Notes: generated from the letters alone by a model not told the origin. DNA of 64,000 nucleotides from Leucoraja ocellata (GCA_036785375.1 JAWMAR010000478.1:62001-126000); one strand, 5' to 3'. Numbered from the stretch's first letter, positions 23,986 through 58,291 are shown. Numbers and translations are program-made.

Positions 23986-26900
23986 ATGAATCTTCTCTGC
24001 ACTCTTTCCAGCTTCCGTCCTAGAGCAATGTGACTAAAACTGGATGCAATACCTGAAATACCGTCTCACCAATGGCTTGCACAACAACTAGAAACTAACA
24101 TCTGCGGCAGGCAAGATATCATTGTCATAAAGTCACAACGCATGAAAACAGGCCCATATCCGTCTAAACATCCGCTCACAGAGTTATAGTGATACATTGT
24201 AGAAACACGACCTTCGGCCCAACTTGTCCACACCAGCCAACATGCCCCAGCTACACTAGTCCCACCTGCCTGCGCTTGGTCCATATCCCTGCAAACCAGT
24301 CCTATCCATGCACCTGTATAACTGTTTCATAAATGTTGGGATAGTCTCTGCCTCAACGACCTCTAATCCTCTCATGATTTATGCACTACTATAAGACTAC
24401 GTTACAGTTTATTTTATTGTCATGTGTGCGCCGAGCTACGGTGAAAAGCTTTTGTTTTTGAATCCATGACCGTCCATGATTACAATCAAGCTGTTTACAG
24501 TGTTTAGATATATGATGAGGGAATAATGTTTAGTGCAAGGTAAAGGCAGTAAAGTCCGATCAAGGATAGACCGAGGGTCACCAATGAGGTAGATAGTAGT
24601 TCAGCACTGCTCTCTGGTTGTGGTGGGATGGTTCAAGGTGCATCTGTGGTTCGTTTAGTTCAGTTTAGCTTATTGTCCTGTGTACCGAGGTATAGTGAAA
24701 AGCTTTAGTTGCGTGCTAACCGCAAGAAATTGCATAAAGTTGTGGACACAGCCCAGACCATCGCACAATCCAACCTCCCTACCATCGACTCCATCTACAC
24801 CTCACGCTGCCGCGACAAGGCCAGCAGCATTATCAAGGACCAGTCTCACCCCGGCCACTCCTTCTTCTCAAGGGCGGAAATCACTTTTAATACATTTGGG
24901 GGGGGACGACACAATTTCCTGGCGGCCCAAAGAGAACACAATGTCTACAACATGCTGCACCTAGTCGACGATTAATATGGTTTAATCTACAATTTGAGAG
25001 GGAGAAGGGAAAATCAGAAATGTCAGTATTACAGTTGAACAAAGGAGACTATGGAGACATGAGGGAGGAGCTGGCCAAAGTTGACTGGAAAAATTCCCTG
25101 GCAGGGATGACATTGGAACAACAATGGCAGGTATTTCTAGGAATAATACAGAAGGTGCAGGATCAGTTCATTCCAAAGAGGGAGAAAGATTCCAAGGGGA
25201 GTAAGGGGCGACCGTGGCTGACAAGGGAAGTCAAGGACAGTATAAAATTAAAGAGAAGAAGTATAACATTGCAAGATGAGTGGGAATCCAGAGGATTGGG
25301 TAATTTTAAAGAGCAACAGAAGATAACTAAGAAGGTAATGCGGGGTATAAAAGATGAGGTACGAAGGTAAGCCAGCCAAGAATATAAAGAGTAAAAGCTT
25401 CTTTAGGTATGTGAAGAGGAAAAAATTAGTTCAGACCGAAGTCAGACTTGAAGACGACAACAGGTGAATTTATTATGGGGAACAAGCAAATGGCAGACGA
25501 GTTGAACGGGTACTTTGACAATAGACAATTGGAGCAGAGTAGGCCATTTGGCCCTTGGAGCCAGCACCGTCATTCAATTTGATCATGGCTGATCATCCAC
25601 ATTCAGACACCCGTTCCTGCCTTCTCACCGTATGCCTTGACTCCACTATCTTTAAGGGCTCTATCTAGCTCTCTTGAAAGTATCCGATCAGTCTTCAGTA
25701 TTGTGTGCAGTTTTGATCTCCATGTTTGAGGAAGAATATTCTTGCTATTGAGGGAGTGCAGCGTAGGTTCACCAGGTTAATTCCCGGGATGGCGGGACTG
25801 TCATATCTTGATAGAATCGAGCGGCTGGGCTTGTATACTCTGGCATTTAGAAGGATGAGAGGGTATCTTATTGAAACATGTAAGATTGTGAAGGGATTGG
25901 ACACTAGGGGCAGGAAACATGTTCCCGATGTTGGGGGAGTCCAGAACCAGGGGCCGCAGTTTAAGAATAAGGGGAAGACCATTTAAAACGGAGATGAGGA
26001 GAAACGTTTTTACCCAGAGAATTGTGAATCTGTGGAATTCTCTGCCTCAGAAAGCAGTGGAGGCCAATTCAATGGATGCTTTCAAGAGACAGTTAGATAG
26101 CGCTCTTAAAGATAGCGGAGTCAAGGGATATGATGAGAAGACAGCAACGGGGTACTGAATGTGGATGATCAGCCATGATCACATTGAATGGCGGTGCTGG
26201 CTCGAAGGGCCGAATGGCCTACTCCTGTACCTATTGTTTATTGTCATGAATCTTCTCTGCACTCTTTCCAGCTTCCGTCCTAGAGCAGTGTGACTAAAAC
26301 TGGATGCAATACCTGAAATACCGTCTCACCAACGTCTTGCACAACAACTAGACTCTAGTCTGAAGAAGGGTTTCGGCCCGAAACGTTGCCTATTTCCTTC
26401 GCTCCATAGATGCTGCTGCACCCGCTGAGTTTCTCCAGCTTTTCTGTGTAACTAGACTCTAACATCTGCGGCAGGCAAGATATCATTGAGTCATAGTGAC
26501 ATTGCATGAAAACAGGCCCATATCCGTCCAAACATCCTCTCATAGAATTATAGTGATACATTGTGGAAACAGCCCCTTTGGCCCAACTTGCCCACACCAG
26601 CCAACATGCCCCAGCTACACTAGTCCCACCTGCCTGTGCTTGGTTCATATCCCTGCAAACCAGTCCTATCCATGCACCTGTATAACTGTTTTGTAAATGT
26701 TGGGATAGTCTCTGCCTCAACGGCTTCTGGCAGCACATGACATACACCCACCACCCTCTGTGTGAAAATGTTACCCCTTAGATTCCTATTAAATCTTTTC
26801 CCCTCACCTTAAACCTATGCTTTCTGATGTTCGATTCCCCTACTCTGGGCAAGAGACTCTGTGCATCTACCCGATCTAATCCTCTCATGATTTATTCTCT

Positions 26901-27045
26901 ACTATAAGACTACATTACAGTTTAGTTTATTGTCATGTTAACCGAGCTACAGTGAAAATCTTTTGTTGTGTGCTAACCAGTCAGTGTACAGACCACACAT
27001 GATTACAATCAAGCTGTTTACAGTATTTAGATACATGATAAGGGA
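23500..27045 (+). repeat. Local direct duplication (~23500-24530 vs ~25697-27045)
   Basis: The same chimeric junctions (e.g. ttattgtcatgaatcttctctgcactctttccagcttccgtcctagagca) occur at 23978 and 26238. A third, inverted copy lies at ~54720-55950. Confidence 0.8.
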
Positions 27046-27376
27046 ACTGGTGTGAAAACGCACATCTCCAGATTCAGGGACAGTTTCTTCGCAGCTGTTA
27101 TCAGGCCATTCTACCACAATTAGGGAGCAGTCCTGAACTACTATCTACCTCATTGGTGACCCTCGGACTATCTTTGATCGGACTTTGCTGGCTTTACCTT
27201 GCACTAAACGTTATTCCCTTTGTCCTGTATCTGTACACTGTGGACAGCTCAATTGTAATCATGTATTGCCTTTCTGCTGACTGGATAGCACGACACAAAA
27301 GCTTTTCACTGTACCTCGTTACACGTGACAATAAATTAAACTGTAAAAACTGAAAACACACCTCTTGTTTTTACAG

Positions 27377-27473
27377 ATAAAAGCTTCAGTATTTGGAAGC
27401 CAGTTTTGCTTACAGCAGGGATAATACTGATGGCTGTGCTAGCTGGATTCATCATCTACAAGTATATACTGCG
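27377..27473 (+). CDS. Siglec-like transmembrane exon (copy A)
   Basis: tttttacag| YKSFSIWKPVLLTAGIILMAVLAGFIIYKYILR |gtaagt; phase 1-2. Confidence 0.88.
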
Positions 27474-27564
27474 GTAAGTTTAAATAAATCCACATTTTTA
27501 CTTCCAAATCCATCTCTTTGTCATCTGCTTATGACTGCTTCTGCCAGGCTTACTCCTGTTCACA

Positions 27565-27920
27565 GACACAAAGTGCTGGAGTAACTCAGCGGGTCAGGCA
27601 GCATCTCTGGAGAACATGGGCAGGTACAAAGTGCTGGAGTAACTCAGCAAGTCAGGCAGCATCTCTGGAGAAGGTTACACAGAAAAGCTGGAGAAACTCA
27701 GCGGGTGCAGCAGCATCTATGGAGCGAAGGAAATAGGCAACGTTTCGGGCCGAAACCCTTCTTCAGACTGATCGGGGGCGGGGGTGGGCGGGGGAATCAT
27801 CTCTGGAGAACATGGACAGGTACAAAGTGCTGGAGTAACTCAGCGGGTCAGGCAGCATCTCTGGAGAACATGGACAGGTACAAAGAGCTGGAGTAACTCA
27901 GCGGGTCAGGCAGCATCTCT
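27565..27920. repeat. ~57-bp tandem repeat of a Penelope/hairpin-family motif, expanded in the left arm
   Basis: Unit caaagtgctggagtaactcagcgggtcaggcagcatctctggagaacatggacaggta occurs ~4-5 times here and ~2 times at 54080-54180. Confidence 0.75.
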
Positions 27921-28640
27921 GCAGATTCAGGAATAGGTGACATTTCGGGTCGGGACCTTCTTCAGACTGAAAGGTTGAGAAAGTCAGAACAAATCAGAGC
28001 CAGCGACAGATGGCCTTTAGACTGTTGTGAGCCATTTTGGGCCCCATATCTGAGGGAGAATGTGCTGGCTCGGGAGAGGGTCCAAAGGATGTTTACGATG
28101 TCACTTACTGGGCCTGTACTAGCTGGAGTTTAGAAGAATAGAATAGTTTCTTTATTGTCATTGTAACATGAACCATGTACAACAAAATTTAAAAATGTGA
28201 GCCAGTCAGTGCACCATTCAAACATTTCTAAAAGCTAACGAGACATACAAGATAAAATATTAAAAGATAAACAACTAAAATAAATATCACAAAAATAGCA
28301 CGCATAATGCGGATGAGGGGGGGACCTCACTGATATTTAATGAATAGTGAATGGCCTGGATAGAGTGGACGTGGAGAGGATGTTTCCACTAGTGGGAGAG
28401 TGAGTTTAGGAGCAGAGGCCACAGCTTTAGAATTAAAGGACTACCTTTAGGAAGCAGAGTAGGTGTTTCTTCAGTCATAGGGTGGTGAATCTGTGTAATT
28501 CTTTGCCACAGAAGGCTGTGGAGGCCAAGCCAATCAATATGTTTAAGGCAGAGATAGATAGGTTATTGATCAGTACGGGTGTCAGGGGTTATGGGGAAAA
28601 AGGCAGGAGAATGGGATTAAGAGGAAGAGTTAGATCAGTC

Positions 28641-30805
28641 CTTAAATGTGGATATGCAATGGAAGACATTGGATATGCAATGGAAGACATTTAAAGACTG
28701 CATGGATGAACTACAAAAAATGTTCATACCAGTTTGGCAAAATAATAAATCAGGGAAGGTAGTACATCCATGGATAACAAGGGAAATCAGAGATAGAATC
28801 AAAGCGAAGGATGATGCGTACACATTAGCCAGAAAAAGCAGCATACCGGAGGGCTGGGAGAAATTCAAAGACCAGCAAAGGAGGACAAAGGGCTTAATTA
28901 GGAAAGGGAAAACAGATTATGAAAGAAAACTGGCAGGGAACATAAAAACTGACAGCAAAAGTTTTTATAGATATGTGAAAAGAAAGAGATTAGTTAAAAC
29001 AAATGTAGGTCTCTTGCAGTCAGAAACAGGTGAGTTGATCATGGGGAACAAGGGTATGGCGGACCAATTGAATAACTACTTTGGTTCCGTCTTCACTAAG
29101 GAAGACATAAATAATTTGCCGGAAATAGCAGGGGACCGCGGGGCAAAGGAGTTGGAGGAATTGAGTGAAATCCAGGTTAGCCGGGAAGTGGTGTTGGGTA
29201 AATTGAATGGATTAAAGGCCGATAAATCCCCAGGGCCAGATAGGCTGCATCCCAGAGTACTTAAGGAAGTAGCTCCAGAAATAGTGGATGCATTAGTAAT
29301 AATCTTTCAAAACTCTTTTGATTCTGGAGTAGTTCCTGAGGATTGGCGGGTAGCAAACGTAACCCCACTTTTTAAGAAGGAACGGAGAGAGAAAATGGGG
29401 AATTACAGACCAGTTTGCCTAACATCGGTAGTGGGGAAACTGCTAGAGTCAGTTATTAAAGATGGGATTACAGCACATTTGGAAAGTGGTGAAATCATTG
29501 GACAAAGTCAGCATGGATTTACGAAAGGTAAATCATGTCTGACGAATCTTATAGAATTTTTCGAGGATGTAACTAGTAGCGTGGATAGGGGAGAACTAGT
29601 GGATGTGGTGTATCTGGACTTCCAAAAGGCTTTCGACAAGGTCCCACATAAGAGATTAGTATACAAACCTAAAACACAAGGCATTGGGGGTTCAGTGTTG
29701 ACGTGGATAGAGAACTGGCTGGCAAACAGGAAGCAAAGAGTAGGAGTAAACGGGTCCTTTTCACAATGGCACGCAGTGACTAGTGGGGTACCGCAAGTCT
29801 CAGTGCTGGGACCCCAGCTATTTACAATATATATTAATGATCTGGATGAGGGAATTGAGGGCAATATCTCCAAGTTTGCGGATGACACTAAGCTGGGGGG
29901 CAGTGTTAGCTGTGAGGAGGATGCTAGGAGACTGCAAGGTGACTTGGATAGGCTGGGTGAGTGGGCAAATGTTTGGCAGATGCAGTATAATGTGGATAAA
30001 TGTGAGGTTATCCATTTTGGTGGCAAAAACGGGAGAGCAGACTATTATCTAAATGGTCGCCGATTGGGAAAGGGGGAGATGCAGCGAGACCTGGGTGTCA
30101 TGGTACACCAGTCATTGAAGGTAGGCATGCAGGTGCAGCAGGCAGTAAAGAAAGCGAATGGTATGCTAGCTTTCATTGCAAAAGGATTTGAGTATAGGAG
30201 CAGGGAGGTTCTACTGCAGTTGTAGAGGGTCTTGGTGAGACCACACCTGGAGTATTGCGTACAGTTTTGGTCTCCAAATCTGAGGAAGGACATTATTGCC
30301 ATAGAGGGAGTGCAGAGACGGTTCACCAGACTGATTCCTGGGATGTCAGGACTGTCTTATGAAGAAAGACTGGATAGACTTGGTTTATACTCTCTAGAAT
30401 TTAGGAGATTGAGAGGGGATCTTATAGAAACTTACAAAATTCTTAAGGGGTTGGACAGGCTAGATGCAGGAAGATTGTTCCCGATGTTAGGGAAGTCCTG
30501 GTCAAGGGGTCACAGCTTAAGGATAAAGGGGAAATCCTTTAAAACCGAGATGAGAAGAACTTTTTTCACACAGAGAGTGGTGAATCTCTGGAACTCTCTG
30601 CCACAGAGGGTAGTTGAGGCCAGTTCATTGGCTATATTTAAAGGGAGTTAGATGTGGCCCTTGTGGCTAAGGGGATCAGGGGGTATGGAGAGAAGGCAGG
30701 TACGGGATACTGAGTTGGATGATCAGCCATGATCATATTGAATGGCGGTGCAGGCTCGAAGGGCCGAATGGCCTACTCCTGCACCTAATTTCTATGTTTC
30801 TATGT
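28641..30805 (+). mobile_element. Young 5'-truncated CR1 LINE, left-arm specific
   Basis: 525-aa ORF with RT motifs (KSPGPD, YLDFQKAFDKVPH, FADD) and an internal stop at 30223. TSD atcagtc/atcagcc. The empty site is visible in the right arm at ~53520. Confidence 0.92.
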
Positions 30806-30973
30806 ATCAGCCATGATTGAATGGCAGAGTAGACTTGATGGGCCGAATGACTTAATTCTGCTCCTATCATTAATAACCTCACGACTTTATGACCAACGTC
30901 TAATACAACTGCAACTTTATACTTGTACTTTGCTGATGTGCTGTAAACTTGGTGTGATCTTCCTTTCCTGCAG

Positions 30974-31040
30974 GAGGGAAGATGCTTCAGGAAACCAAGA
31001 CATCAATGTGATCTACTGCCCACAATCTGCCACCAATCAG
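30974..31040 (+). CDS. Siglec-like cytoplasmic exon 1 (copy A)
   Basis: tcctttcctgcag| (R)REDASGNQDINVIYCPQSATNQ |gtagtg; phase 2-0, 67 nt. Confidence 0.8.
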
Positions 31041-32332
31041 GTAGTGGAACTTTGTATTTAATCTCAACTACAGATGATACACACGTGGGTACAAAATGCT
31101 GGAGTAACTCAGTGGAACAGGCAGAATCTCTGGAGAGAAGGATCAGGTGATGTTTCGGTCGAGACTCGAGGGGCCTGAGCTACAGAGAGATGTTGAGGAG
31201 GCTGGGACTCTATTCTTTGGAGCGCAGGGGGATGAGGGGTGATCTTATAGATGGGTATAAAACCATGAGAGGAATAGATCAGGTAGATGCACAGAGACTC
31301 TTGCCCAGTGTAGGGGAATCGAGGACCAGAGGACATAGGTTCAAGGTGAAGGGGAAAAAAATCTGAGGGGTTACTTTTTCACACAAAGGGTGGTGCGTGT
31401 ATGGAACGAGCTGCTGGAGGAGGTAGTTGAGGCTGGGACTATCCCAACGTTTAAGAAACAGTTAGAAAGGTACATGGACCAAGCGCAGGCAGGTGGGACT
31501 AGTGTAGCTGGGCCATGTTGGTCGGTGTGGGCAAGTTGGGCAGAAGGACCCGTTTCCACAATGTATGACTCTATATAGATGATGATGTAGAGAGAGATAA
31601 AGAACAATGAATGAAAGTTAGATGTAAACAAAGTAACGATGATAAAGGAAACAGGCCACTGTTAGTGGTTTGTTGGATGAAAACGAGAAGCTGGTGCGAC
31701 TTGGGTGGGGGAGGGATGGAGATAGAGGGAACACAGGGCTACCTCAAGTGAGGGAAATCAATGTTCATATCACTGGGCTGTAAGCTGCCCAAACGGAATA
31801 TGTGATGCTGGTCCTCCAATTTGTGTTTAGCCTCACTCTGTCAATGGAGGCGACCGAGGACAGAAAGGTCAGTGTGGGAAGGGGAATTAAAGTATTTAGC
31901 AACCGGGGGTATGAATATTGATTAATCTAACTATGCGTGAGTGTGAGAGAGTGTGTGAGAGAGTGGGTGTGAGTGTGAGACAAAGTTTGAGAGAGAAGGA
32001 GACGCGGCGAGAGAGGGAGAGAGAGAGTGGGTGAAACTACGAGTGTGAGAGACACAGTACCTGAGTGTGAGCGAGTGAGAGAAAGAGTAGAGGGAGAAAG
32101 GGGGGAGAGAGAAAGTGTGAAACTGCCAGTGAGAGGGAGAGAGAGAGAGAATGAGAGAGGGGGAGAGAGAAGGAGAGCGAGAGTGTGTGAGAGGAGAACA
32201 TAAACAACATGGCTGAACCTGGGTCTGTGGGAGTACAGGAGTTGTGAACCTTCTCGCTGATGGTATTAAATGCCGGGCCACACTGCTCTGTACTGAACCG
32301 ACAACTGCCCGTCTGCTTCCCTTTCCTTCCAG

Positions 32333-32539
32333 AGCGCGGGGAGTGGAGAGAACGGGTCGGCCCCAGTAGGAGGGGAATCAGGAGAGGGGGAAGAGCAAGC
32401 GGTCGTGTACGCCAACATGCGGGAGGTGCTGAGCAGCGGAGACACCGGGCACAGTGGCGAGGGGGTGGAATACGCGGAGCTCTGGTTCCAGTCCAAGCAG
32501 GGGAAGGGGGAGGTGGGAGGATGGAGGGAGGGGTGGTGA
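32333..32539 (+). CDS. Siglec-like terminal cytoplasmic exon with ITIM-type motifs (copy A)
   Basis: ctttccttccag| SAGSGENGSAPVGGESGEGEEQAVVYANMREVLSSGDTGHSGEGVEYAELWFQSKQGKGEVGGWREGW*; motifs VVYANM and VEYAEL. Confidence 0.85.
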   Translation, partial: SAGSGENGSAPVGGESGEGEEQAVVYANMREVLSSGDTGHSGEGVEYAELWFQSKQGKGEVGGWREGW

Positions 32540-33234
32540 GGAGGGAGAGGCGATGGGGAGAGAGCGCTGCACCAGCCTTAACTACCTTGGGTTTCATAGA
32601 TTAATTAACCCTCTGTAGATGAAATAGTGGGATAACATAGAACTAGTGTGTAAACACATGATCGATGGTCAGTACAGACTCGGTGGGCTGAAGGGCCTGT
32701 TTCCCCGCTGTATCTCTTTAGAAAAGCCTTTGTTTCTTTAGAACAGACTGTTCCGCGGGTAACTATGAACATTGAGAATAATTGCTTCTATCAAATGATA
32801 ATCTGTTAAACACAGTCTTTACCTGCAGTTACAAAATCCACTCGTAGCTATTAAATGAAGACCTTTATTTTTTGAGAATCCTGTGGGAATTTTGCTAATG
32901 CTATTCTGAAGCTCTTGCTCTTGTAGCACCATGTTCTATAACACGTTTCATAGCAAGCAGCTCTCTGTGTGGCATTGGTGAGTAATAATAATAATGAAAT
33001 GCAGACGCTGGAAATCTGACAAAGGGCGGCACGGTGGCGCAGCGGTAGAGTTGCTGCCTCACAGCGCCAGAGACCCGGGTTCGATCCTGACTACAGGTGC
33101 TGTCTGTGCGGAGTTTGTACGTTCTCCCCGTGACCTGTGTGGGTTTTCTCCGGGATCTTCGGTTTCCTCCCACACCCCACAGATGGGCTGGTTTGTAGGT
33201 TAATTGGCTTGCTGTAAATGTACATTGTCCCTGC

Positions 33235-33610
33235 TTACCCACCACACCACCTCCAGGTCCCACAGATCGGCAGACTTGGGGTTACTGAACATCCCGCGGT
33301 CTAGGCATAAGCTCAGGGGCCACCGTGTCTTTGCGGTTGCAGCTCCGTGACTGTGGAACAGCATCCCTCTTCCCATCAGAATTGCCCCCTCCATCGACTC
33401 TTTTGAGTCGAGACTTAAAACTCATCTTTACTCTCAAGCCTTTCTTGACATCCTCTGAGGGAGGGCTATATGTATGTATTTATGTATGTACTTAATCTAT
33501 GAACCACCGTTGTATAACGTTAGTACCTCCACCAATGTAAAGCACTTTGGTCAACGAGAGATGTTTTTTAAATGTGCTATAGAAATAAAAGTGACTTGAC
33601 TTGACTTGAC
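33235..33610 (+). mobile_element. L2 3' end nested in a V-SINE (mirrored at ~48250-48630)
   Basis: ttgcagctccgtgactgtggaacagc...cttaaaactcatct followed by an aataaaa(gtgactt/gactt)n tail. Confidence 0.75.
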
Positions 33611-34996
33611 TGGGTGTGTGTAGTGTGCGGGGATCGCTGGTCGGCGCTGACTCGATGGGCCGAAGGTCCTGTTTCCGCGCTGTGTCTCTAAACTACACTA
33701 AACTAAATCTAATCAGTCATGGTCATCTAATAGTGGAGCAGGTGCAAGATTAATCCTGATACTATTTTTATATCATTACATGTTTTCTGCAGAGGATTTG
33801 GATTTGTTGCATTTGTAAACAAAGAGATTAAAATGCTGAACCATTACAGTCACATGTCTCAGAATTATGTTTGAAACATCTCTTTTATTTGATTTGTGTT
33901 CTCCTAATTTGAGGAAGGACATTCTTGGTATTGAGTAGGTAGCATAGGTTCACCAGGTTAATTCCCGTGATGGCGGGACTGACATATGTTGAAAGAATGG
34001 ATCGACTGGGCTTGTATTCACTGGAATTTAGAAGGATGAGAGGTCACCTTATAGAAACATATACATCCTTAAGGGATTGGACAGGGATGCAGGGAAAATG
34101 TTCCCGATATTGGGGGGAGTCCAGAACCAGGGGTCACAGTTTAAGAATATGGGGTCGGCCATTTAGGACTGAGATGAGGAAAATCGTTTTCACCTAGAGA
34201 GTTGTGAATCTGGGAATTCTCTGCCACAGAAGGCAGTGGAGGCCAATTCACCTGATGTTTTCAAGAGTTAGATTTAGCTCTTTGGGCTAATGGAATGAAG
34301 GGATATGGGGAGAAAGCAGGAACGGGGTACTGATTTTGGATGGTCAGCCATGATCATATTGAGTGGCGGTGCTGGCACGAATGGCCGAATGACCTACTCC
34401 TGCACGTATGTTCTGTGTCCTCGCTGTGTCTCTAAACTAAACTAAAGCCTTCCGATCCCATTCCCGACTGAATATCTTGTAAAAGTCGCGATTGTGTCCT
34501 TTCGAAAGATTCAATTTTTAAAATTTCAAAATATACTTTATTTGAGAAATAAATATATCCGATAGATGATCCTTACAAGACTCCATCCAACATTCTTGGA
34601 GGCTATACATACATTCAATAATGTTTACACAAATTACACAAATTTATCCCCCACCCTTGCCACTCATGTGGCCCACTGGCATGGAATCCCTTCCCATATT
34701 TTTGAGGGGCGTCTCCACCACACCCTGCCCCCCATGTCCAGCAGCGGGAGGAACCTAGACTGTGGTCCTCCATCACTGAGAATTTTTTTAATATCAAAAA
34801 ATGTAATTAATTATTAAAAATAATATTTACAATACAATGAAACAAACCAGATCCCACCCCCATAATGCAAGACCAACAAATATACTAAATAAACGACTAT
34901 ACAATTATGTTACAATCCTTGTCAAGGATGCATTCCACCCCCCGCCGTGCCCAACGGCGCGGCAAATCCCCCAGGTTGCCCATGGACAATGTGTAG

Positions 34997-35390
34997 CAAA
35001 GATCCTATAGCAAGCAAGATCGTCCACTCGACCAAAAAGACATAGTACGGTCATGGGCATATTCATGGGTAATTTAAGGACCCATTCCCGTAACCGGCTT
35101 CCGTCTCCGCACCACAGATCCCATAGGATAATAGTGCGGAGACGGAAGCCGGTTATGGAAACATCCTCGTAAAAAAAAAGTTAGTTGGTAAAAATCTTCT
35201 TCTCATTTTCAGAATTTTAATGTATTAACACAAACTGATCCCCCGCAGCGTTGATTACACTGCGAGTCGGGTCGGGTCCGGTTACGGAAGTGGATGAAAA
35301 AAAGGCCCAAGTTCCGTTCCGTTGCGTACTACACGTCAGCCCATTGTATTTAGCAGGAGTGGTCTATCTTGTTCCGCTATAGGATCTTTG
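34997..35390. mobile_element. hAT-type MITE (mirrored at 46475-46865)
   Basis: ~35-bp TIR caaagatcctatagc..agcaagat.g.ccactc. 8-bp TSD atgtgtag/gtgtgtag (right arm ctacgcac/ctacacac). Confidence 0.8.
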
Positions 35391-36438
35391 GTGTGTAGTC
35401 CCTCTCTAACACCACCCGGGCACGGACGTAACCCTGGAAAAGGGGCAGGCATCTGGCTCGGGCAGAGCCCTCTTCTGCCTGACCCAGTGACTCGAGGATG
35501 GCCAGCTTGGCCAGGCCCAGGAGCAACCCAACCAGGACATCTTCAGCTCTACCCTCTCCCCCTGCACAGGTTGTCCAAAGATGAGGATGGTGGGTGAGAA
35601 ATGCAGCCAGAAGGCAAGTAGCAGCCGCTTTAGATATTGGAACAGGGGATGCAGCCTCACACACACACACGTGGCTCACAGATTCTTCCAGCCCACAAAG
35701 GTGGCAGACGGCTGGTGAGTCTGTGAACCGCGAGAGAAACAGGTTGCAGGGGACTCCGGTGCAATACCCTGCACCCCAGGTCCCCGATGTAGAGGGGGAG
35801 AATCCCTGCGTAGAGGGACCCCTCCCCCCCCCCCACCGAGCCTTGGCGTTGGCTACACCAAGCTTCAGTGTGTCCCTTCAGCACGTACTCCTGCAGTCTG
35901 CAGCGGGCCAGTCGGCAACATTCTCCGACAGACATCCCGCTCCGCTGGGTGGTCAACAAAGCTCAGGCAGACCAAAGGGCGTCTTTCACCGAGTTGATGA
36001 CCTTCCAGCAGCACTCGATGTCAGTCTCTGAATGTGTCCCTGGGAACAGTCCGTAAATCACAGAGTCCTCTGTGACAGAGCTGTTCAGAATAAATCGTGA
36101 CAGGGACCCTTGCAAACCTCTCCAGACTCTCTTTGCAAATCCACACTCTGCAACGAGGTGGGCAACCGTCTCCTCTCCATAGCAGCCGTCCCAAGGGCAG
36201 CGTGCGCTGGTAGTGAGGTTCCGACGGTGCAGGAAGGATCTGACTGGGAGGGGTCCCCTCACCGCCAGCCAAGCCAGGTCTTGGTGCTTGTTGTTGAGTT
36301 CTGGCGATGAAGCATTTCGCCAGACAAGCTGGGCAGTCTGCTCTGGGAACCACGCCACAGGATCCATGGAGTCATTTCGCTGCAGTGCCTGCAGGTCGTT
36401 CCGTGCTGACCACTGCCCGATGGACTTGTGGTCAATGG

Positions 36439-42755: not shown

Positions 42756-42764
42756 TTTCAGAAA

Positions 42765-45900: not shown

Positions 45901-48900
45901 GCCTGAGCTTTGTTGGCCACCCAGCGGAGCGGGATGTCTGTCGGAGAATGTTGCCTACTGGCCCGCTGCAGACTGCAGGAGTACGTGCTGAAGGGACGCA
46001 CTGAAGCTTGGTGTAGCCAACGCCAAGGCTCGGTTGGGGGGGGGGTCCCTCTACGCAGGAATTCTCCCCCTCTACATCAGGGACCTGGGGTGCAGGGTAT
46101 TGCACCGGAGTCCCCTGCAACCTGTTTCTCTCGCGGTTCACAGACTCACCAGCCGTCTGCCACCTTTGTGGGCTGGAAGAATCTGTGAGCCACGTGTGTG
46201 TGTGTGAGGCTGCATCCCCTGTTCCAATATCTAATGCGGCTGCTACTTGCCTTCTGGCTGCATTTCTCACCTACCATCCTCATCTTTGGACACCCTGTGC
46301 ATGGGGGAGAGGGTAGGGCTGAAGATGTCCTGGTTGGGTTGCTCCTGGGCCTGGCCAAGCTGGCTATCCTCAAGTCACTGGGTCAGGCAGAAGAGGGCTC
46401 TGCCCGAGCCAGCTGCCTGCCCCTTTTCCGGGGTTACATCCGTGCCCGGGTGGTGTTAGAGAGGGACTACGCACCAAAGATCCTATAGCGGAGCAAGATA
46501 GACCACTCCTGCTAAATACAATGGGCTGACGTGTAGTATGCAACGGAACGGAACGTGGGCCTTTTTTTCATCCATTTCCGTAACCGGACCCTACCCGACT
46601 CGCAGTGTAATCAACGCTGCGGGGGATCAGTTTGTGTTAATACATTAAAATTCTGAAAATGAGAAGATTTTTACCAACTAACTTTTATTTTTACGAGGAT
46701 GTTTCCGTAACCGGCTTACGTCTCCGCACTATTATCCTATGGGATCTGTGGTGCGGAGACGGAAGCCGGTTACGGGAATGGGGCCTTAAATTACCCATGA
46801 ATATGCCCATGACCGTACTATGTCTTTTGGTCGAGTGGACGATCTTGCTCGCTGTAGGATCTTTGCTACACACTGTCCACGGGCAACTTGGGGGATTTGC
46901 CGCACCGTTGGGCACGGCGGGGGGTGGAATGCATCCTTGACAAGGATTGTAACATAGTTGTATAGTCGATTATTAAGTATATTTGTTGGTCTTGTATTAT
47001 GGGGGTGGGATCTGGTTTGTTTCATTGTATTGTAAATATTATTTTTAATAATTAATTACATTTTTTGATATAAAAAAAATTCTTAGTGAGGGAGGATCAC
47101 AGTCTAGGTTCCTTCCGCTGCTGGACATGGGGGGCAGGGTGTGGTGGAGACGCCCTCGAAAATATGGGAATGGATTCCATGCCAGTGGGCCACATGAGTG
47201 GCAAGGGGGGGGGGATAAATTTGTGTAATTTGTGTAAACATTATTGAAAGTATATATGGCCTCCAAGAATGTTGGATGGAGTCTTGTAAGGATCAACTAT
47301 CGGATATATTTATTTCTCAAATAAAGTATATTTTGAAATTTTAAAAATTGAATCTTTCGAAAGGACACAATCGCGACTTTAACAAGATATTCAGACGGGA
47401 ATGTAATCGGAAGGCTTTAGTTTAGTTTAGAGACACAGCGAGGACACAGAACATACGTGCAGGAGTAGGCCATTTGGCCATTCGTGCCAGCACCGCCACT
47501 CAATATGATCATGGCTGACCATCCAAAATTAGTACCCCGTTCCTGCTTTCTCCCCATATCCCTTCATTCCGTTAGCCCAAAGAGCTAAATCTAACTCTTG
47601 AAAACATCAGGTGAATTCGCCTCCACTGCCTTCTGTGGCAGAGAATTCCCAGATTCACAACTCTCTGGGTGAAAATGATTTTCCTCATCTCAGTTCTACA
47701 TGGCTGACCCCATATTCTTAAACTGTGACCCCTGGTTCTGGACTCCTCCCCGATATCGGGATCATTTTCCCTGCATCCCTGTCCAAACCCTTAAGGATGT
47801 ATATGTTTCTATAAGGACCCTCTCATCCTTCTAAATTCCAGTGAATACAAGCCCAGTCGATCCATTCTTTCATCATATGTCAGTCCCGCCATCACGGGAA
47901 TTAACCTGGTGAACCTACGCTGCACTCCCTCAATAGCAAGAATGTCCTTCCTCAAATTAGGAGACAAAAATCAAATAAAAGAGATGTGTAAAACATAATT
48001 CTGAGACATGTGACTGTAATGATTCAGCATTTTAATCTCTTTGTTTACAAATGCAACAAATCCAAATCCTCTGCAGAAAACATGTAATGATATAAAAATA
48101 GTATCAGGATTAATCTTGCACCTGCTCCACTATTAGATGACCATGACTGATTAGTTTTAGTTTAGTGTAGTTTAGAGACACAGCGCGGAAACAGGACCTT
48201 CGGCCCATCGAGTCAGCGCCGACCAGCGATCCCCGCACACTACACACACCCAGTCAAGTCAAGTCAAGTCACTTTTATTTCTATAGCACATTTAAAAAAC
48301 ATCTCTCGTTGACCAAAGTGCTTTACATTGGTGGAGGTACTAACGTTATACAACGGTGGTTCATAGATTAAGTACATACATAAATTCATACATATAGCCC
48401 TCCCTCAGAGGATGACAAGAAAGGCTTGAGAGTAAAGATGCGTTTTAACTCTCGACTTAAAAGAGTCGATGGAGGGGGCAGTTCTGATGGGAAGAGGGAT
48501 GCTGTTCCACAGTCACGGAGTTGCAACCGCAAAGGCACGGTTGCCCCTGAGCTTATGCCTAGACCGCAGGATGTTCAGTAACCCCAAGCCTGCCGATCTG
48601 TGGGACCTGGAGGTGGTGTGGTGGGTAAGCAGGGACAATGTACATTTACAGCAAGCCAATTAACCTACAAACCAGCCCATCTGTGGGGTGTGGGAGCAAA
48701 CCGAAGATCCCGGAGAAAACGCACACAGGTCACGGGGAGAACGTACAAACTCCGCACAGACAGCACCTGTAGTCAGGATCAAACCCGGGTCTCTGGCGCT
48801 GTGAGGCAGCAACTCTACCGCTGCGCCACCGTGCCGCCCTTTGTCAGATTTCCAGCGTCTGCATTTCATTATTATTATTACTCAACAATGCCACATAGAG

Positions 48901-49096
48901 AGCTGCTTGCTATGAAACTTGTTATAGAACATGGTGCTACAAGAGCAAGAGCTTCAGAATAGTATTAGCAACAATCCCACAGGATTCTCAAAATATATAT
49001 TTAATAGCTACGAGTGGATTTTGTAACTGCAGGTAAAGACTGTTTAACAGACTGTCATTTGATAGAAGCAATTATTGTCAATGTTAATAGTTACCC

Positions 49097-51938
49097 CAAT
49101 AAAATCGCTGAAAAATGGTAAGACACCGGGACCAGATGGTTTTAATAATGAATTTTATAAAGGATTTCGGGAGATAACGACCCCTTATTTATTTAATTTA
49201 TACTCCCATGCTTTTAAAGAAAACAAACTACTAACAGAATCAACTATTACGCTTATTCCAAAAAAAAGATAAAGATTTAGAAGATCCGGGCTCGTACAGA
49301 GCTATATCACTTTTAAATACAGATCAGAAAATTTTAGCAAAGATTTTAGCAAGAAGATTAAGCAAATATATTAGTAAATTGATAAACCCTGATCAAACGG
49401 TTTTTATACCAAAAATATACTCATTTAATAATCTGAGACGCCTGTTTAATATAATGTACTCGCATAAAGTAGAGGAAGAAGATATATCAATTATTTCTTT
49501 GGATGCAGAGAAAGCATTTGATCAGGTAGAGTGGCAATACTTATATAAAGTACTACAAAAATTTAATATGGGAATTTTATAACATGGGTAAAATTATTAT
49601 ATGATAAACCGATGGCAAGAATTTTAACTAATAACATGTTATCTCAAAAATTTCAACTATCAAGGGGTAATACGCAGGGATGTGCACTATCACCCCTGCT
49701 ATTTGCCCTTATGATAGAACCCCTGGCTGAAAGTATAAAAATTCATCCGAATATTCAGGGCTATAATACCAGGGACGCAAAGAATAAAATCTCATTATAT
49801 GCAGACGATATACTTTTATACATTACAAAGTCACAAACAAGCATACTGTAGTGCGTGGGTCTCAGAATGAGGCAAGTAGTCCGCAGTTTGAGAAGCACTA
49901 TACTTTATTTCCTCCCGGTTCAGGGGAAGACGAAACCAGGGGAAGATGGCACCCAAACCCTGCCTTTTATACCCTCCGGCTAAGGACCGCCTCCGGACTG
50001 CACCACTCCTGTGCCGAGGGGTTCGGCAGTATAATGGGACGACCCTTAGGAGCCGCCACAATACCAAATTTATTAAACTTAATAGAGGAATTTGGATCTT
50101 TTTCTGGATATAGAATAAACTGGAACAAAAGTGAAATCATGACATTAAAACCTCAAGAACCTACACACTTATTGAAGTTCCCCTTTAAAATCGCAACAGA
50201 AAAATTTAAATATTTGGGTATTCAGATTACTAGAAAATATAAAGCATTATTCAACGCTAATTTCATACCTGTATTAACTTTATACGCTGATTACATTTTG
50301 TAAAACTCTTCCCTTATCATTATTAGGTAGAATAAATGCAACAAAAATGATCTTCCTACCACAATTACTATACGTATTTCAGTCTATACCGGTATATATA
50401 CCAAAATATTTTAAAAAAAAATTAGTCTCTAACATTACAAATTATATTTGGGACTATAGATCACATAGAATCACAAAAAAACACTTATGTAAACCAAAAG
50501 AGGTCGGGGGACTTTCACTTCCGAAATTCACTTCCGAATTTTATGTATTATTACTGTGCAATGCATATTAAGAATATGATTTATTGGTTGGATAGTTCTA
50601 CCCAACAGACAGAATGGATAAAAATGGAGAAGGAGGATTGCCATCCTTGTAATATAGGAACGATCCTCTTTTCCCCAAAAAACCGGAATAACACAATATA
50701 TAAGAAGAACCCAATTATATATGGTACAATAAGAATTTGGAAACAAATAAAATTATCTTTAAAATTAAGAAATCTATCACTGTTAATGCCAATTGCGAAT
50801 AACCCTTTATTTAAACCATCTCTTATTGATAAGACATATAACCAATGGGAACGTCTCGGAATTAGAAGGATCAGGGATATGTACGAAATGGGAAACCTAC
50901 TATCATTCTAACAACTACAATTAAAATTTAAATTGAAAAACAACCAATATTTTAAATATCTTCAGATTTGCGACTTTGTGAAAAAATATATACCTGTACC
51001 TGTACAAGGATATCAAAAAGTAACTCCTGACTTATTGGAAGAAGCAATGAATATTGAAGCTGACTCACAAAAATTAATATCATATTTATATAATAGTATT
51101 CTAAATATAGATCTACCATCGACAGAGGTACTTAGAGAAGAGTGGGAACGGGAACTAATGATAAAAATTACTAAGGTTAATTGGGAAAAATACCTGATAT
51201 ATATTCACAAATGTTCAATTAATGTAAGACATAATCTAATTCAATTTAAAATTGTACATAGATTATATTATTCAAAAACAAGATTGAACAAATTTTATCC
51301 AAATATATCCGCCACTTGTGATAAATGTCTAGCCCAAAAGGCAACTATAACACACTCCTTAGTTTCCTGCATAAAACTTTATAGATTTTGGAATGATATT
51401 TTTGAAATATTTACAAAATTATTCAAGACAAGAATGGAACCTAATACTGAAATTATTATATTTGGTGTAATGGAAGATGGGAATAAATTGAACACATCTC
51501 AAAATCTATTCCTTAACTATGGTTTACTAATAGCAAAAAAAATAATACTTAAATTTTGGAAGGGTACATCAATACCAACGCTTAAAATGTGGATTGCAAG
51601 TATGTTGGACACCGCTCATCTTGAGGAAATGCGATTCCTCCTAATGGATAAATCAGACCAATTCATAACGAGTTGGTCTCCATTCGTCGTTTTTTTGGAA
51701 TCATATGGTGCAACACAATTGTAAAAAATAACTGTTTCAGGACTGGACGAGGGTTGGTCAAGATTATAAATAATGATCTCCTTTTCTTTTTTTATTTTAT
51801 TTTCTTTTCTCTATTTTCTCTCTCAACTTTCTTCATTTACTCGTTTTCTTTCTTCACACGCTATATATTTCACATCTTTCTATCCTTTACTATCTAACTT
51901 CTTTTTCTTATTCTATTCTTAAAAAAAAAAAAAAAAAA
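49097..51938 (+). mobile_element. 5'-truncated L1-clade LINE, right-arm specific
   Basis: GKTPGPDGF, SLDAEKAFDQV, QGCALSPLLF, LYADD, and C-terminal CDKC...HSLVSC. Poly(A) at 51921-51938. Degenerate TSD aatagttaccc/aatatttaccc. Empty site at ~32760. Confidence 0.92.
49847..50060 (-). mobile_element. Solo LTR (214 bp) nested in L1
   Basis: TG...CA termini and 4-bp TSD atac (49843-49846, 50061-50064). The - strand has tataaaa and then aataaa. Confidence 0.8.
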
Positions 51939-52198
51939 TCAATATTTACCCGCGGAACAGTCTGGGTTCTAAAGAACAAAGGCTTTTTTTTAAAGAGATA
52001 CAGCGGGGAAACAGGCCCTTCAGCCCACCGAGTCCGCACCGACCATCGGTCATCTGTTTACACACTAGTTCTATGTTATCCCACTATTTCATCTACAGAG
52101 GGTTAATTAATCTATGAAACCCAAGGTAGTTAAGGCTGGTGCAGCGCTCTCTCCCCATCGCCTCTCCCTCCTCACCACCCCTCCCTCCATACTCCCAC

Positions 52199-52390
52199 CT
52201 ACCCCTTCCCCTTCTTGGACTGGAACCAGAGCTCCGCGTATTCCACCCCCTCGCCACTGTGCCCGGTGGCTCCGCTGCTCAGCACCTCCTGCAGGTTGGC
52301 GTACACGACCGCTTGCTCTTCCCCCTCTCCTGATTCCCCTCCTTCTTTCCGCTCCACTGGGCCCGGCCCGTTCTCTCCACTCCCCGCGCT
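52199..52390 (-). CDS. Siglec-like terminal ITIM exon (copy B)
   Basis: SAGSGENGPGPVERKEGGESGEGEEQAVVYANLQEVLSSGATGHSGEGVEYAELWFQSKKGKG*; motifs VVYANL and VEYAEL; acceptor intact. Confidence 0.82.
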   Translation of the reverse strand, partial: SAGSGENGPGPVERKEGGESGEGEEQAVVYANLQEVLSSGATGHSGEGVEYAELWFQSKKGKG

Positions 52391-53294
52391 CTGGAAGGAA
52401 AGGGAAGCAGACGGGCAGTTATGGGTTTAGTACAGAGCAGTGTGGCCCGGCATTTAATACCATCAGTGAGAAGGTTCACAACTCCTGAACTCCCACAGAC
52501 CCAGGTTCAGCCATGTTGTTGATGTTCTCCTCTCACACATTCTCGCTCTCCTTCTCTCTCCCCTCTCTCACTTTCTCTCCCTCTCCCTCTCCCTTTCCCT
52601 TGCAGTTTCACACTTTCTCTCTCCCCCTTTCTCCCTCTCCTCTTTCTCTCACTCGCTCACACTCAGGCACTGTGTCTCTCACACTCGCACTTTCAACCAC
52701 TCTCTCTCTCTCCCTCTCTCGCCCCGTCTCCCCCTCATTGTTCTTTATCTCTCTCTACATCATCATCTATATAGAGTCATCCATTGTGGAAACAGGCCCT
52801 TCGGCCCAACTTGCCCACACCGGCCAACATGTCCAGCTACACTAGTCCCACCTGCCTGCGCTTGGTCCATGTACCTTTCTAACTGTTTCTTAAACGTTGG
52901 GATAGTCCCAGCCTGAACTACCTCCTCCAGCAGCTCGTTCCATACACTTTGTGTGAAAAAGTAACCTCTTAAATTTTTTCCCCCTTCACCTTGAACCGAT
53001 GTCCTCTGGTCCTCGATTCCCCTACTTTGGGCAAGAGACTCTGTGCATCTACCCGATCTATTCCTCTCATGATTGTATACACCTCTATAAGATCACCCCT
53101 CATCCCCCTGCACTCCAAGGAATAGAGTCCCAGCCTCCTCAACCTCTCCCTGTAGCTCAGGCCCCTCGAGTCTCGACCGAAACATCACCTGTTCCTTCTC
53201 TCCAGAGATTCTGCCTGTTCCACTGAGTTACTCCAGCTTTTTGTACCCACGTTTGTATCATCTGTAGTTGAGATTAAATACAAAGTTTCACTAC

Positions 53295-53361
53295 CTGATT
53301 GGTGGCAGATTGTGGGCAGTAGATCACATTGGTGTCTTGGTTTCCTGAAGCATCTTCCCTC
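53295..53361 (-). CDS. Siglec-like cytoplasmic exon 1 (copy B)
   Basis: (R)REDASGNQDTNVIYCPQSATNQ, 67 nt, AG/GT intact. Confidence 0.78.
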
Positions 53362-54277
53362 CTGCAGCTACAGAAGATCACACAAAGTTTACAGCACATC
53401 AGCAAAGTCCAAGTATAAAGTTGCAGTTGTATTAGACGTTGGTCATAAAGTCGTGAGGTTATTAATGATAGGAGCAGAATGAAGTCATTCGGCCCATCAA
53501 GTCTACTCTGCCATTCAATCATGACTGATCTAACTCTTCCTCCTAATCCCATTCTCCTGCCTTTTTCCCCATAACCCCTGACACCCGTACTGATCAATAA
53601 CCTATCTATCTCTGCCTTAAACATATTGATTGGCTTGGCCTCCACAGCCTTCTGTGGCAAAGAATTACACAGATTCACCACCCTATGACTGAAGAAACTC
53701 CTACTCTGCTTCCTAAAGGTAGTCCTTTAATTCTAAGGCTGTGGCCTCTGGTCCTAAACACACTCTCCCACTAGTGGAAACATCCTCCCCACATCCACTC
53801 TATCCAGGCCATTCACTATTCATTAAATATCAATGAGGTCTTCCCCTCATCCTTCTAAACTCCAGCTAGTACAGGCCCAGTGAGTGTCAAATGTTAATCA
53901 TTCTCGTAAACCTCCTTTGGACCCTCTCCCGAGCCAGCACATTCTCCCTCAGATATGGGGCCCAAAACGGCTCACAACAGTCTAAAGGCCATCTGTCGCC
54001 GGCTCTGATTTGTTCTAACTTTCTCAACCTTTCAGTCTGAAGAAGGTCCCGACCCGAAATTTCACCTATTCCTGAATCCCCAGAGATGCTGCCTGACCCG
54101 CTGAGTTACTCCAGCACTTTGTACCTGTCCATGTTCTCCAGAGATGCTGCCTGACCCGCTGAGTTACTCCTCCAGCACTTTGTGTCTGTGAACAGGAGTT
54201 AGCCTGGCAGAAGCAGTCATAAGCAGATGACAAAGAGATGGATTTGGAAGTAAAAATGTGGATGTATTTAAACTTAC

Positions 54278-54374
54278 CGCAGTATATACTTGTAGATGAT
54301 GAATCCAGCTAGCACAGCCATCAGTATTATCCCTGCTGTAAGCAAAACTGCCTTCCAAATACTGAAGCCTTTAT
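54278..54374 (-). CDS. Siglec-like transmembrane exon (copy B); upstream Ig exons not present in window
   Basis: YKGFSIWKAVLLTAGIILMAVLAGFIIYKYILR, 97 nt, AG/GT intact. Confidence 0.85.
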
Positions 54375-57029
54375 CTGTAAAAACAAGAGGTGTGTTTTCA
54401 GTTTTTACAGTTTAATTTATTGTCACGTGTAACGAGGTACAGTGAAAAGCTTTTGTGTCGTGCTATCCAGTCAGCGGAAAGGCAATACATGATTACAATC
54501 GAGCTGTCCACAGTGTACAGATACAGAACAAAGGGAATAAGGTTTAGTGCAAGGTAAAGCCAGCAAAGTCCGATCAAAGATAGTCCGAGGGTCACCAATG
54601 AGGTAGATAGTAGTTCAGGACTGCTCCCTAATTGTGGTAGAATGGCCTGATAACAGCTGGGAAGAAACTGTCTCTGAATCTGGAGATGTGCGTTTTCACA
54701 CCAGTTCCCTTATCATGTATCTAAATACTGTAAACAGCTTGATTGTAATCATGTATGGTCTGTACACTGACTGGTTAGCACACAACAAAAGCTTTTCACT
54801 GTAGCTGGGTAAACATGACAATAAACTAAACTGTAACGTAGTCTTATAGTAGTGTATAAATCATGAGTGGATTAGATCGGGTAGATGCACAGAGTCTCTT
54901 GCCCAGAGTAGGGGAATCGAACATCAGAGGACATAGGTTTAAGGTGAGGAGAAAAAGATTTAATAGGAATCTAAGGGGAAACTTTTCCACACAGTGGGTG
55001 GTGGGTGTATGGATTGTGCTGCCAGAGGCCGTTGAGGCAGAGACTATCCCAACATTTACAAAACAGTTATACAGGTACATGGATAGGACTGGTTTGCAGG
55101 GATATGAACCAAGCACAGGCATGTGGGACTAGTGTAGCTGGGGCATGTTGGCTGGTGTGGACAAGTTGGGCCGAAGGGCCTGTTTCCACAATGTATCACT
55201 ATAACTGTGAGAGGATGTTCAGATGGATATGGGCCTGTTTTCATGCAATGTCACTATGACTCAATGATATCTTGCCTGCCGCAGATGTTAGTTTCTAGTT
55301 ATTGTGCAAGACGTTAGTGAGACCGCATTTGAGGTATTGCGTCCAGTTTTAGTCACACTGCTCTAGGAAGGAAGCTGGAAAGAGTGCAGAGAAGATTCAA
55401 GACAATAGACAATAGGTACTGGAGTAGGCCATTCGGCCCTTCGAGCCAGCACCGCCATTCAATGTGATCATGACTGATCATCCACATTCAGTACCCCGTT
55501 CCTGTCTTCTCACCATAGCCCTTGACTCCGCTATCTTTAAGAGCGCTATCTAACTGTTTCTTGAAAGCATCCATTGAATTGGCCTCCACTGCTTTCTGAG
55601 GCAGAGAATTCCACAGGTTCACAATTCTCTGGGTAAAAACGTTTCTCCTCATCTCCGTTTTAAATGGCCTACCCCTTATTCTTAAACTGTGGCCCCTGGT
55701 TCTGGACTCCCCCAACATCGGGAACATGTTTCCTTCCCCTAGTGTCCAATCCCTTCACAATCTTCCATGTTTCAATAAGATCCCTCTCATCCTTCTAAAA
55801 TGCCAGAGTATACAAGCCCAGCCGCTCCATTCTATCAAGATATGACAGTCCCGCCATCCCGGGAATTAACCTGGTGAACCTACGCTGCACTCCCTCAATA
55901 GCAAGAATGTTCTTCCTCAAATATGGAGATCAAAACTGCACACAATACTGAAGACGGATCGGATACTTTCAAGAGAGCTAGATAGAGCCCTTAAAGATAG
56001 TGAGTTGTAACCATATAACCATATAACAATTACTGCACGGAAACAGGCCATCTCGGCCCTACAAGTCCGTGCCGAACAAATGTTTTTTGCCCTTAGTCCC
56101 ACCTGCCTGCACTCATACCATAACCCTCCATTCCCTTCTCATCCATATGCCTATCCAATTTATTGTTAAATGATACCAATGAACCTGCCTCCACCACTTC
56201 CACTGGAAGCTCATTCCACACCGCTACCACTCTCCGAGTAAAGAAGTTCCTCCTCATATTACCCCTAAACTTCTGNNNNNNNNNNNNNNNNNNNNNNNNN
56301 NNNNNNNNNNNNNNNNNNNNNNNNNNNNNNNNNNNNNNNNNNNNNNNNNNNNNNNNNNNNNNNNNNNNNNNNNNNNNNNNNNNNNNNNNNNNNNNNNNNN
56401 NNNNNNNNNNNNNNNNNNNNNNNNNNNNNNNNNNNNNNNNNNNNNNNNNNNNNNNNNNNNNNNNNNNNNNNNNNNTCCACCCCGAAACGTGGGGCTTGAA
56501 TCGGCCAGTTCACGGGGCCTTTCATCGCCAGTCGCCTCGACGGGGTGATGGAAGATCCCGCGGCCGATTTTAAGCCGCGATGGGCAGTGCGATGAAAGGC
56601 CGCGCGAACGTGCCGACTCAAGCTCCACTCCATGAACTTTACAAGGACGTCTCCCTCGTCCAATCACTGCGGTCTATCCTCAGTCCCACCGGGTACATCC
56701 GCCTCTGATCGACATCCCCCTCCACCAATAATCCGCTGAATCATCATGCCCCCCCCCCCCCTTCCACCGCGTGCTGACCAATGTCTCTCTCGTACAGTCG
56801 GCGCCCACGATCACCCCCCCCCCCCACCTTCCCCCGTCCCAACTGGAATTTCCGCCCATTTGTGGTGTGGGCGATACGAGGAGAGAGAAAGAGAGAGCGT
56901 GAGGTGCTGAAGAGATGGAGCGTGAGGGAGGGGGAGGGGGGGGGGGAGGGGTGGGGAGGGGGGAGAGGGAAGGGAAGAGAGTCGTTGAGAACGAGGGAGA
57001 ATGGGAAGGGGAGGGGAGAAAAATTGGGG

Positions 57030-57360: not shown

Positions 57361-57387
57361 TTTAATTTCTCACCTTTCCCCCACCAG

Positions 57388-58255: not shown

Positions 58256-58291
58256 ATTCCAACTAACGTCCTCTCACGTGTGCTCTTGTGA

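Follow-up and report, generated by a model that had tools for sequence, protein, structure and literature searches.

A 30-kb inverted duplication of the end of a CD33-like Siglec gene, perhaps seeded at a repeat-derived hairpin, in the skate Leucoraja ocellata

How did the end of a Siglec gene come to face its own mirror image in a skate genome, and how long ago? The question arises in a 64,000-nt stretch of one strand from Leucoraja ocellata (GCA_036785375.1 JAWMAR010000478.1:62001-126000), hereafter the window, with positions counted from its first letter. Self-comparison of the window followed by block-by-block realignment revealed 13 colinear reverse-complement blocks that span 25644-56002 around an axis at 42857/8. 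These blocks comprise 8,808 aligned bases with 8,475 matches, 333 mismatches (3.78%), and 37 small gaps (96.2% identity), and the ten outer blocks alone differ by 302 substitutions in 8,423 bases (3.59%; Kimura two-parameter distance, 0.037). Over 20 shuffles of the right arm, the best BLAST score was 30 bits, whereas the largest real block reached 5,941 bits. The arms measure 17,214 bases on the left and 13,145 on the right, and the ~8.8 kb that pairs amounts to about half of the former and two thirds of the latter. An inverted segmental duplication is conventionally recognized by colinear reverse-complement sequence above 90% identity over more than 1 kb, as found here between the arms. The doubled DNA also includes nonrepeat sequence, i.e., three exons, their flanking introns, and shared repeat junctions, and is not merely a set of transposon copies. 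An earlier note on this DNA had described colinear identity across exons, introns, and shared junctions, and the self-comparison bears this out from 25644 and 56002 inward. The inverted duplication is thus very probably real.

The doubled gene is supported, on its predicted product, as a CD33-like Siglec of cartilaginous fish. A search with its V-set exon retrieved 53 proteins, among which the best single-domain matches were skate Siglec models from Amblyraja, Leucoraja, and Rhinoraja (72-79% identity at the top), while the highest scores belonged to two ray proteins of 620-701 residues with 45-48% identity. A gene model based on tblastn with all 53 proteins and on reading of the raw sequence gave a single Siglec gene on the + strand, composed of a leader exon, a V exon, three C2 exons, a transmembrane exon, and two cytoplasmic exons. 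Pfam matches above the cut-off were V-set and Ig_CD22 (37.4 and 28.3 bits) and C2-set_2 (39.7 bits). CD33-related Siglecs carry a characteristic arginine in the V-set domain, and the corresponding arginine (YFFR, 9907-9909) is present as in the skate homologues. It is the last three exons of this gene, transmembrane and two cytoplasmic, that the arms double, with splice sites intact on both sides.

The outer limit of the right arm is not a demonstrated breakpoint. At 56002, a younger CR1 element breaks the mirror with its 3′ end, which meets a 200-N gap after 273 bases. Past this gap, no continuation of the mirror was found (33 matches between 1-25700 and 56476-64000, of which 6 reach ≥85% over 50 bases, all 56-85 bases long), and tblastn found no immunoglobulin (Ig) exon in 56476-64000. 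The earlier note had spoken of a doubled signaling half; the transmembrane and tail exons are indeed the only ones doubled in the window, but duplication of that half alone cannot be claimed because the right arm enters an assembly gap without a visible breakpoint. The Siglec locus fills the 49.8-kb stretch between the 200-N gaps at 6309-6508 and 56276-56475. Three runs of N occur in the window in all (6309-6508, 12424-12553, and 56276-56475).

The center bears on how the arms arose. Within the inner 2,416 bases (41692-44107), only 370 bases pair, as two short blocks. The absence of any gap at the center, as reported earlier, therefore holds on the axis itself, where there is a 79-bp stem, and fails around it. 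This stem belongs to a hairpin (42765-42950) with 3 mismatches, a 28-nt loop, a folding energy of -100.3 kcal/mol, and a z-score of -20.7. Its two halves are inverted copies of a short repeat whose family has many copies in the window, the nearest of which matches each half at only 88-90 of 109 columns. We take this family to be Penelope-type termini, a label that Rfam did not confirm: over 26000-44000, there was no hammerhead match, and 12 hairpin look-alikes all fell below the gathering score. A motif resembling what we take to be the hammerhead core is nonetheless present in 5 sister copies in the window and deleted at the apex. Penelope elements can make inverted pairs with palindromic junctions, according to one report (PMC3846280). 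Stem divergence (3/79, 3.8%) is the same as that of the arms (3.6%). A count of 8 mismatches in 93 positions (p 0.02), by which the apex halves would be older than the arms, was rejected since it took in the loop.

The left side of the hairpin adds a second landmark. The 215 unique bases there contain an exon whose match to P0054, a 265-residue protein with relatives in Heptranchias and Scyliorhinus (65-68% over residues 36-165), stops where the hairpin element starts. With tblastn, no further exon of this gene was identified in the window. The order across the axis is Siglec, neighbor exon, hairpin, mirrored flank, and mirrored Siglec. By its similarity, the apex exon appears to be the decayed first exon of an unannotated shark and skate gene for a single-pass membrane protein. 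In one of the sequencing runs described below (X13), a contig over the start of this exon has a depth of 1,995 compared to 148 alongside, a hint of many copies there.

Seven self-palindromes occur in the 64 kb, and we estimate the chance that one falls in the 411-bp innermost interval at roughly 4-5%. The six others, all made of inverted repeat fragments, lie at 10010-10295, 35085-35161, 43154-43663, 46702-46778, 59998-60246, and 61031-61180. Because divergence in the stem equals that in the arms, the neighbor gene is cut at the element, and such a placement has so small a chance, we lean, somewhat beyond even confidence, toward an old inverted duplication that fold-back copying at the axis hairpin produced and that was later eroded, likely neutrally. 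Ancestrally, the Siglec gene would have been followed by the membrane-protein gene, both on the + strand, and the short element would have landed in or at the end of the first exon of the latter. A broken or stalled strand could then have folded at the element, recopied the Siglec end in reverse, and replaced the rest of the neighbor gene, after which one-sided deletions and insertions near the apex would have widened the unpaired center. The right copy probably continues, or once continued, into Ig exons past the gap and would be one of at least three tail paralogues. Fold-back at short inverted repeats, and secondary rearrangements that lengthen the spacer of palindromic junctions, are described in PMC10766186.

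The main rival to fold-back copying reverses the role of the element. Whole units of Siglec plus neighbor gene would first have been inverted with a long spacer between them and later brought together by deletion, so that the element at the junction would mark the collapse and not the origin. Such a history would suit the different points at which the two sides leave the neighbor gene, since the left side runs as far as codon 58 and the right side ends ~40 bp short of the start codon. It would also suit the small share of inner bases that pair (370/2,416) and the suggestion of three or more tail types. The asymmetry is accounted for equally well by one 227-bp deletion in the right side, however, and the equal divergence of stem and arms (3/79 versus 3.6%) demands an element as old as the duplication. 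We consider the spaced inversion unlikely.

The arms also record what happened after they formed. Every event private to one arm that the earlier note had named was found in the position given there or a few bases away. Target-site duplications mark some of them as insertions made after the split, namely the right L1, the 96-bp insert on the left, and probably the left CR1, while microhomology at others led us to read them as deletions (3,549 bp on the right and 69 bp on the left). An L1 patch in the left arm (36439-37006) swaps out 388 bp of an older long interspersed element (LINE) without target duplication and resembles a break patch. Two left-only element halves (26357-26452 and 27674-27769) are inverted, 96 bp long, 100% identical, and 1.2 kb apart. 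The transmembrane exon lies between them in DNA that shows no inversion against the right arm, where the sites are empty. They are either a single two-ended insertion or two very young copies.

We then come to the age of the duplication and to gene conversion, which the earlier note had thought might act between the arms. The arms differ by 1 to 15 mismatches per 200 columns. Dispersion of the raw substitutions was significant (p 0.0004) when gaps and the three central blocks were counted; without these blocks (385 of 8,808 columns), clustering p values ranged from 0.007 to 0.29. After substitutions within 3 bases of each other were merged in the ten outer blocks (261 events), none of five tests, which addressed dispersion, minimum windows, and the length of the longest identical stretch (230 bp), was significant (p 0.16-0.78). 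The raw clustering is thus significant because of the central blocks and adjacent multi-base changes, and no conversion tract survives. Given the 3.6% divergence and the unshared insertions, the sequences give no sign of ongoing homogenization, and short or old tracts may still be present.

The two tails differ by 9 replacements, one stop loss, one 12-bp gap, and no synonymous change, i.e., 0 synonymous and 10 other coding changes compared to 2.9 synonymous and 9.7 nonsynonymous expected at 3.6%. Neither tail, on these counts, bears a sign of purifying selection. Relative to the Amblyraja radiata model P0006, the left tail has 8 residue differences and the right tail 11, compared to 9 between the tails. 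Since the distance between the tails matches that from either tail to P0006, their split would be about as old as the split from the P0006 gene, if P0006 is the nearest relative. The duplication therefore does not seem very recent, and the "recent" of the earlier note is weakened by the 3.6-3.8% divergence, the several later insertions, and these tail distances. Read against the general ITIM (immunoreceptor tyrosine-based inhibitory motif) consensus, the right tail carries VVYANL and VEYAEL and the left tail VVYANM and VEYAEL. Both transmembrane spans are uncharged and both tails have tyrosine motifs, which is not the pattern of a paired activating and inhibitory receptor; the tail-to-tail locus is accordingly read from its predicted products as two inhibitory-type tails.

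These data also bear on the earlier note's own version of events, in which a signaling half was recently duplicated, was kept alike by gene conversion, and could offer exon shuffling a new tail. Only transmembrane and tail exons are doubled in the window, with no Ig exon in 56476-64000, the right tail retains its splice sites, ITIM, and stop, and raw substitutions are uneven (dispersion p 0.007-0.03; longest identical run, p 0.05), all of which would fit. Nevertheless, the arm is ended by a CR1 element and a gap and not by a visible breakpoint, the merged events do not cluster, and each tail is as distant from the other as from P0006, and we regard this version as very improbable.

Whether the two arms truly lie side by side was approached with assembled contigs from four runs (at most four samples from three studies, with the source sample perhaps among them) compared over 42433-52400. 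The results concern the best 32 of ~626,000 pieces; contig depth is not copy number, and high-copy repeats swamp the tallies of depth, joints, and loose ends. The left inner flank was present without difference in X1 (42467-42710), X2 (42467-42789), and X4 (42467-42782), and an X2 contig crosses the junction of exon and element by 37 bases. Pieces of the right inner flank (43015-43139, 43343-43483, and 43651-43888) occurred in the same three runs with 0-4 differences and similar depth, and X13 yielded pieces of both inner flanks with 4-5 differences. Contigs built from short words can scarcely cross such an apex. The contigs carry the left-arm letter at 14 of the 18 listed arm differences, yet in 48914-49096, where the arms differ from each other at 10 sites, contigs of both X2 and X4 depart from the right arm at 2. 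These letters suggest the majority type of at least three paralogues and not two alleles. Mean depth of the listed arm pieces was 2.9, 1.8, and 2.7 times that of the center pieces, a weak hint from means that omit an X1 L1 piece and a low-depth X1 piece showing 7 differences. The central 42467-42789 showed no difference in three runs, and arm pieces differed at 1-4 sites per 120-260 bases. The invariant center is best read as one locus, as opposed to several collapsed paralogues of the arms, although it might belong to an amplified whole unit, as contig depths 5-10 times lower occur in X1, X2, and X4.

An assembly artefact, in which divergent haplotypes or distant paralogues were joined tail to tail via the high-copy hairpin, would be helped by the position of the join in a high-copy repeat, by the absence of a bridging piece among the contigs listed, and by the shortness of the stretch between 200-N gaps, just 49.8 kb. 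We judge it improbable, since both inner flanks occur together in 3/3 close runs, with pieces of both in the fourth, and the contigs match neither arm's type. A fold-back artefact of a single read was rejected because it would give identical arms, and here there are 3.8% divergence and several dated insertions.

Several points nonetheless weigh against fold-back copying at the hairpin. Among the 32 contigs listed of ~626,000, none bridges the apex, and the cis arrangement rests on the assembly. The hairpin might be no more than a self-inverted element of the ordinary kind, at the site by chance, since elements of this type make inverted pairs by themselves (PMC3846280), and equal divergence of stem and arms is a weak test over 79 bp. 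Symmetry is poor in the apex loop, where 5 of 14 pairs are mismatched. The two innermost blocks exceed the divergence of the arms (17/200, p 0.001, and 6/92, p 0.11), and one of them may consist of unrelated CR1 copies. The absence of synonymous changes in the tails would also be expected under positive selection, which may have acted (neutrality p 0.05-0.07).

Table 1. Positions of the arms, center, exons, and arm-private stretches in the window.
Feature	Position	Strand	Remarks
Left arm of inverted duplication	25644..42857	+	17.2 kb, ~8.8 kb paired
Right arm	42858..56002	-	13.1 kb, ~8.8 kb paired; CR1 insertion and gap set outer end
Younger CR1, 3′ end	56003..56275	-	interrupts right arm, enters gap
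200-N gap	56276..56475	.	
Apex hairpin	42753..42951	.	two inverted halves of high-copy short repeat; 6-bp palindrome on axis 42857/8
Innermost paired block	42446..42537	+	92 bases 5′ of apex exon; mirror 43040-42949 abuts hairpin
Apex exon, first coding stretch	42579..42752	+	signal peptide and CxxC, 58 codons; 83% to P0054, E 1.6e-23
Right transmembrane exon	54278..54374	-	splice sites intact
Right cytoplasmic exon 1	53295..53361	-	
Right last exon	52199..52390	-	two ITIM-type motifs and stop present
Left Siglec leader exon	8657..8696	+	
Left Siglec V-set exon	9000..9976	+	LINE-like fragment near 9028-9646 splits exon; YFFR arginine codon 9907-9909
Left Siglec C2 exon 1	10433..10726	+	open
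Left Siglec C2 exon 2	11609..12324	+	frameshifted; CR1 piece near 11791-12224
Left Siglec C2 exon 3	19573..19853	+	frameshift near 19709
Left transmembrane exon	27377..27473	+	splice sites intact; span without charged residue
Left cytoplasmic exon 1	30974..31040	+	
Left last exon	32333..32539	+	12-bp deletion; first ITIM ends M not L; stop lost, 9 extra residues
96-bp insert, left only	26353-26448		target duplication
5′-truncated CR1 insertion, left only	28641..30805	+	RVT_1 match; 7-bp flanking repeat
Stretch absent from right arm	31611-31997		left only
L1 patch, left only	36439..37006	+	replaces 388 bp present on right at 45043-45430
3.5 kb with LINE remains, left only	37097..40645	.	read as right-arm deletion, 5-bp microhomology
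L1 insertion, right only	49097..51941	+	10-bp target duplication, poly(A)
Further left-only stretches	27672-27797, 28140-28310, 41074-41347, 41692-42445, 42538-42764		not named in the earlier note
Further right-only stretches	43041-44107, 44308-44376		not named in the earlier note

Upstream of the arms, the left gene is damaged, with three of its four Ig exons broken. A LINE-like 3′ fragment of ~620 bp (9028-9646), which bears a (TTCTA)n tail, enters the V exon behind the ninth codon. This tail and the next bases build a possible in-frame cryptic acceptor (9654-9655), which could in principle bypass the insert at a predicted cost of ~15 residues. The frameshift and read-through of C2 exon 2 are common to the left gene and the Amblyraja radiata model P0004, and the lesion therefore predates the split of these lineages or genes. 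Because the V exon is interrupted, two C2 exons are frameshifted, and the stop is lost, the left gene is probably a pseudogene.

What gene the apex exon once belonged to is a question in its own right. P0054, P0058, and P0059 share a signal peptide and a single transmembrane span, with two CxxC motifs and further cysteines conserved among them, and the fragment in the window carries the first of the two CxxC motifs. A search of 50%-identity clusters gave 4 relatives only. Structure prediction suggested four helices and a two-strand hairpin at a mean predicted local distance difference test score (pLDDT) of 47 (two low-confidence models, 45-47). Two fold searches returned long-helix matches only, Pfam gave no IZUMO hit and no family, and a sequence search of the PDB found nothing usable. 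PMC12615630 and PMC8999778 describe members of the IST superfamily without an Ig domain (IZUMO2/3, TMEM95, and TEX51) as having a CXXC pair, a bundle of four anti-parallel helices, and a beta-hinge. Relatives of the apex gene resemble these members in their signal peptide, two CxxC motifs, predicted helices, and single transmembrane span. They differ in having no Pfam IZUMO hit or fold match, and by language-model features their nearest neighbors were Kit, Flt3, and CSF-1 ligands (0.91-0.88), ranked above IZUMO3 (0.87). The gene is thus possibly IZUMO/IST-like by layout and Kit/Flt3-ligand-like by language-model features. In either case, the locus draws attention to a membrane-protein gene that has no name, is conserved among sharks and skates, and may be a member of the IST fertilization family or a Kit/Flt3-type ligand.

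A more specific form of fold-back copying can be envisaged, in which a Penelope-type hairpin in the first exon of an IST-like gene seeded a germline fold-back that destroyed that copy and doubled the Siglec. We hold this proposal to be doubtful as a whole. If true, the apex would preserve the trace of an immune gene cluster whose inverted growth was driven by a retroelement, and Siglec and IST genes would be neighbors in cartilaginous fish, matching their linkage on human 19q13. Our literature search found no paper linking IZUMO2, SIGLEC11, and 19q13.

Part of this is known already, as inverted growth of Siglec clusters occurs in mammals and many automatic skate Siglec models exist, and the duplication in itself is unsurprising. 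Among the papers listed by a literature search, outside of which most subscription papers lay, none concerned Siglec duplication in cartilaginous fish, judging by title or start of the abstract. The locus adds a readable junction, i.e., an old germline palindrome with an element-derived hairpin as its axis, in which each arm serves as a pre-insertion record of the other for several retrotransposon events. A close gene model is P0006 of Amblyraja radiata (350 residues with V, C2, transmembrane span, and tail), which, with its relatives P0018 and P0024, has the same three-exon tail with two tyrosine motifs; the left gene of Leucoraja ocellata differs by its extra broken C2 exons and its interrupted V exon. 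For the mammalian CD33-related Siglec cluster, an ancient inverse duplication on a large scale has been proposed (Cao et al. 2009, PMID 19337729, as cited in PMC5702289), and the proposal invoked by the earlier note indeed exists. The two systems are alike in that Siglec genes were multiplied in inverted orientation. However, the mammalian event, as represented in that citing source, is ancient and cluster-wide, whereas the skate shows one 30-kb unit with 96% identity and a readable apex, and a common origin is unsupported. SIGLEC11 and SIGLEC16, according to PMC5701461 and PMC6288428, lie head to head ~9 kb apart, are kept alike in their Ig half by conversion, and have opposed tails, with an ITIM in one and a charged transmembrane residue in the other. 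They resemble the skate copies as two close Siglec paralogues in opposite orientation, but the latter are tail to tail and both inhibitory-type, with no charged residue and no detected conversion. Inverted duplications formed by origin-dependent inverted-repeat amplification (ODIRA), as described in PMC10766186, share a junction at an interrupted inverted repeat and a spacer lengthened by secondary rearrangement. These differ in their ~5-nt seeds, their inverted triplications, and their setting in yeast and human disease, whereas the skate locus combines a 79-bp element-derived stem with an old germline copy and one visible junction.

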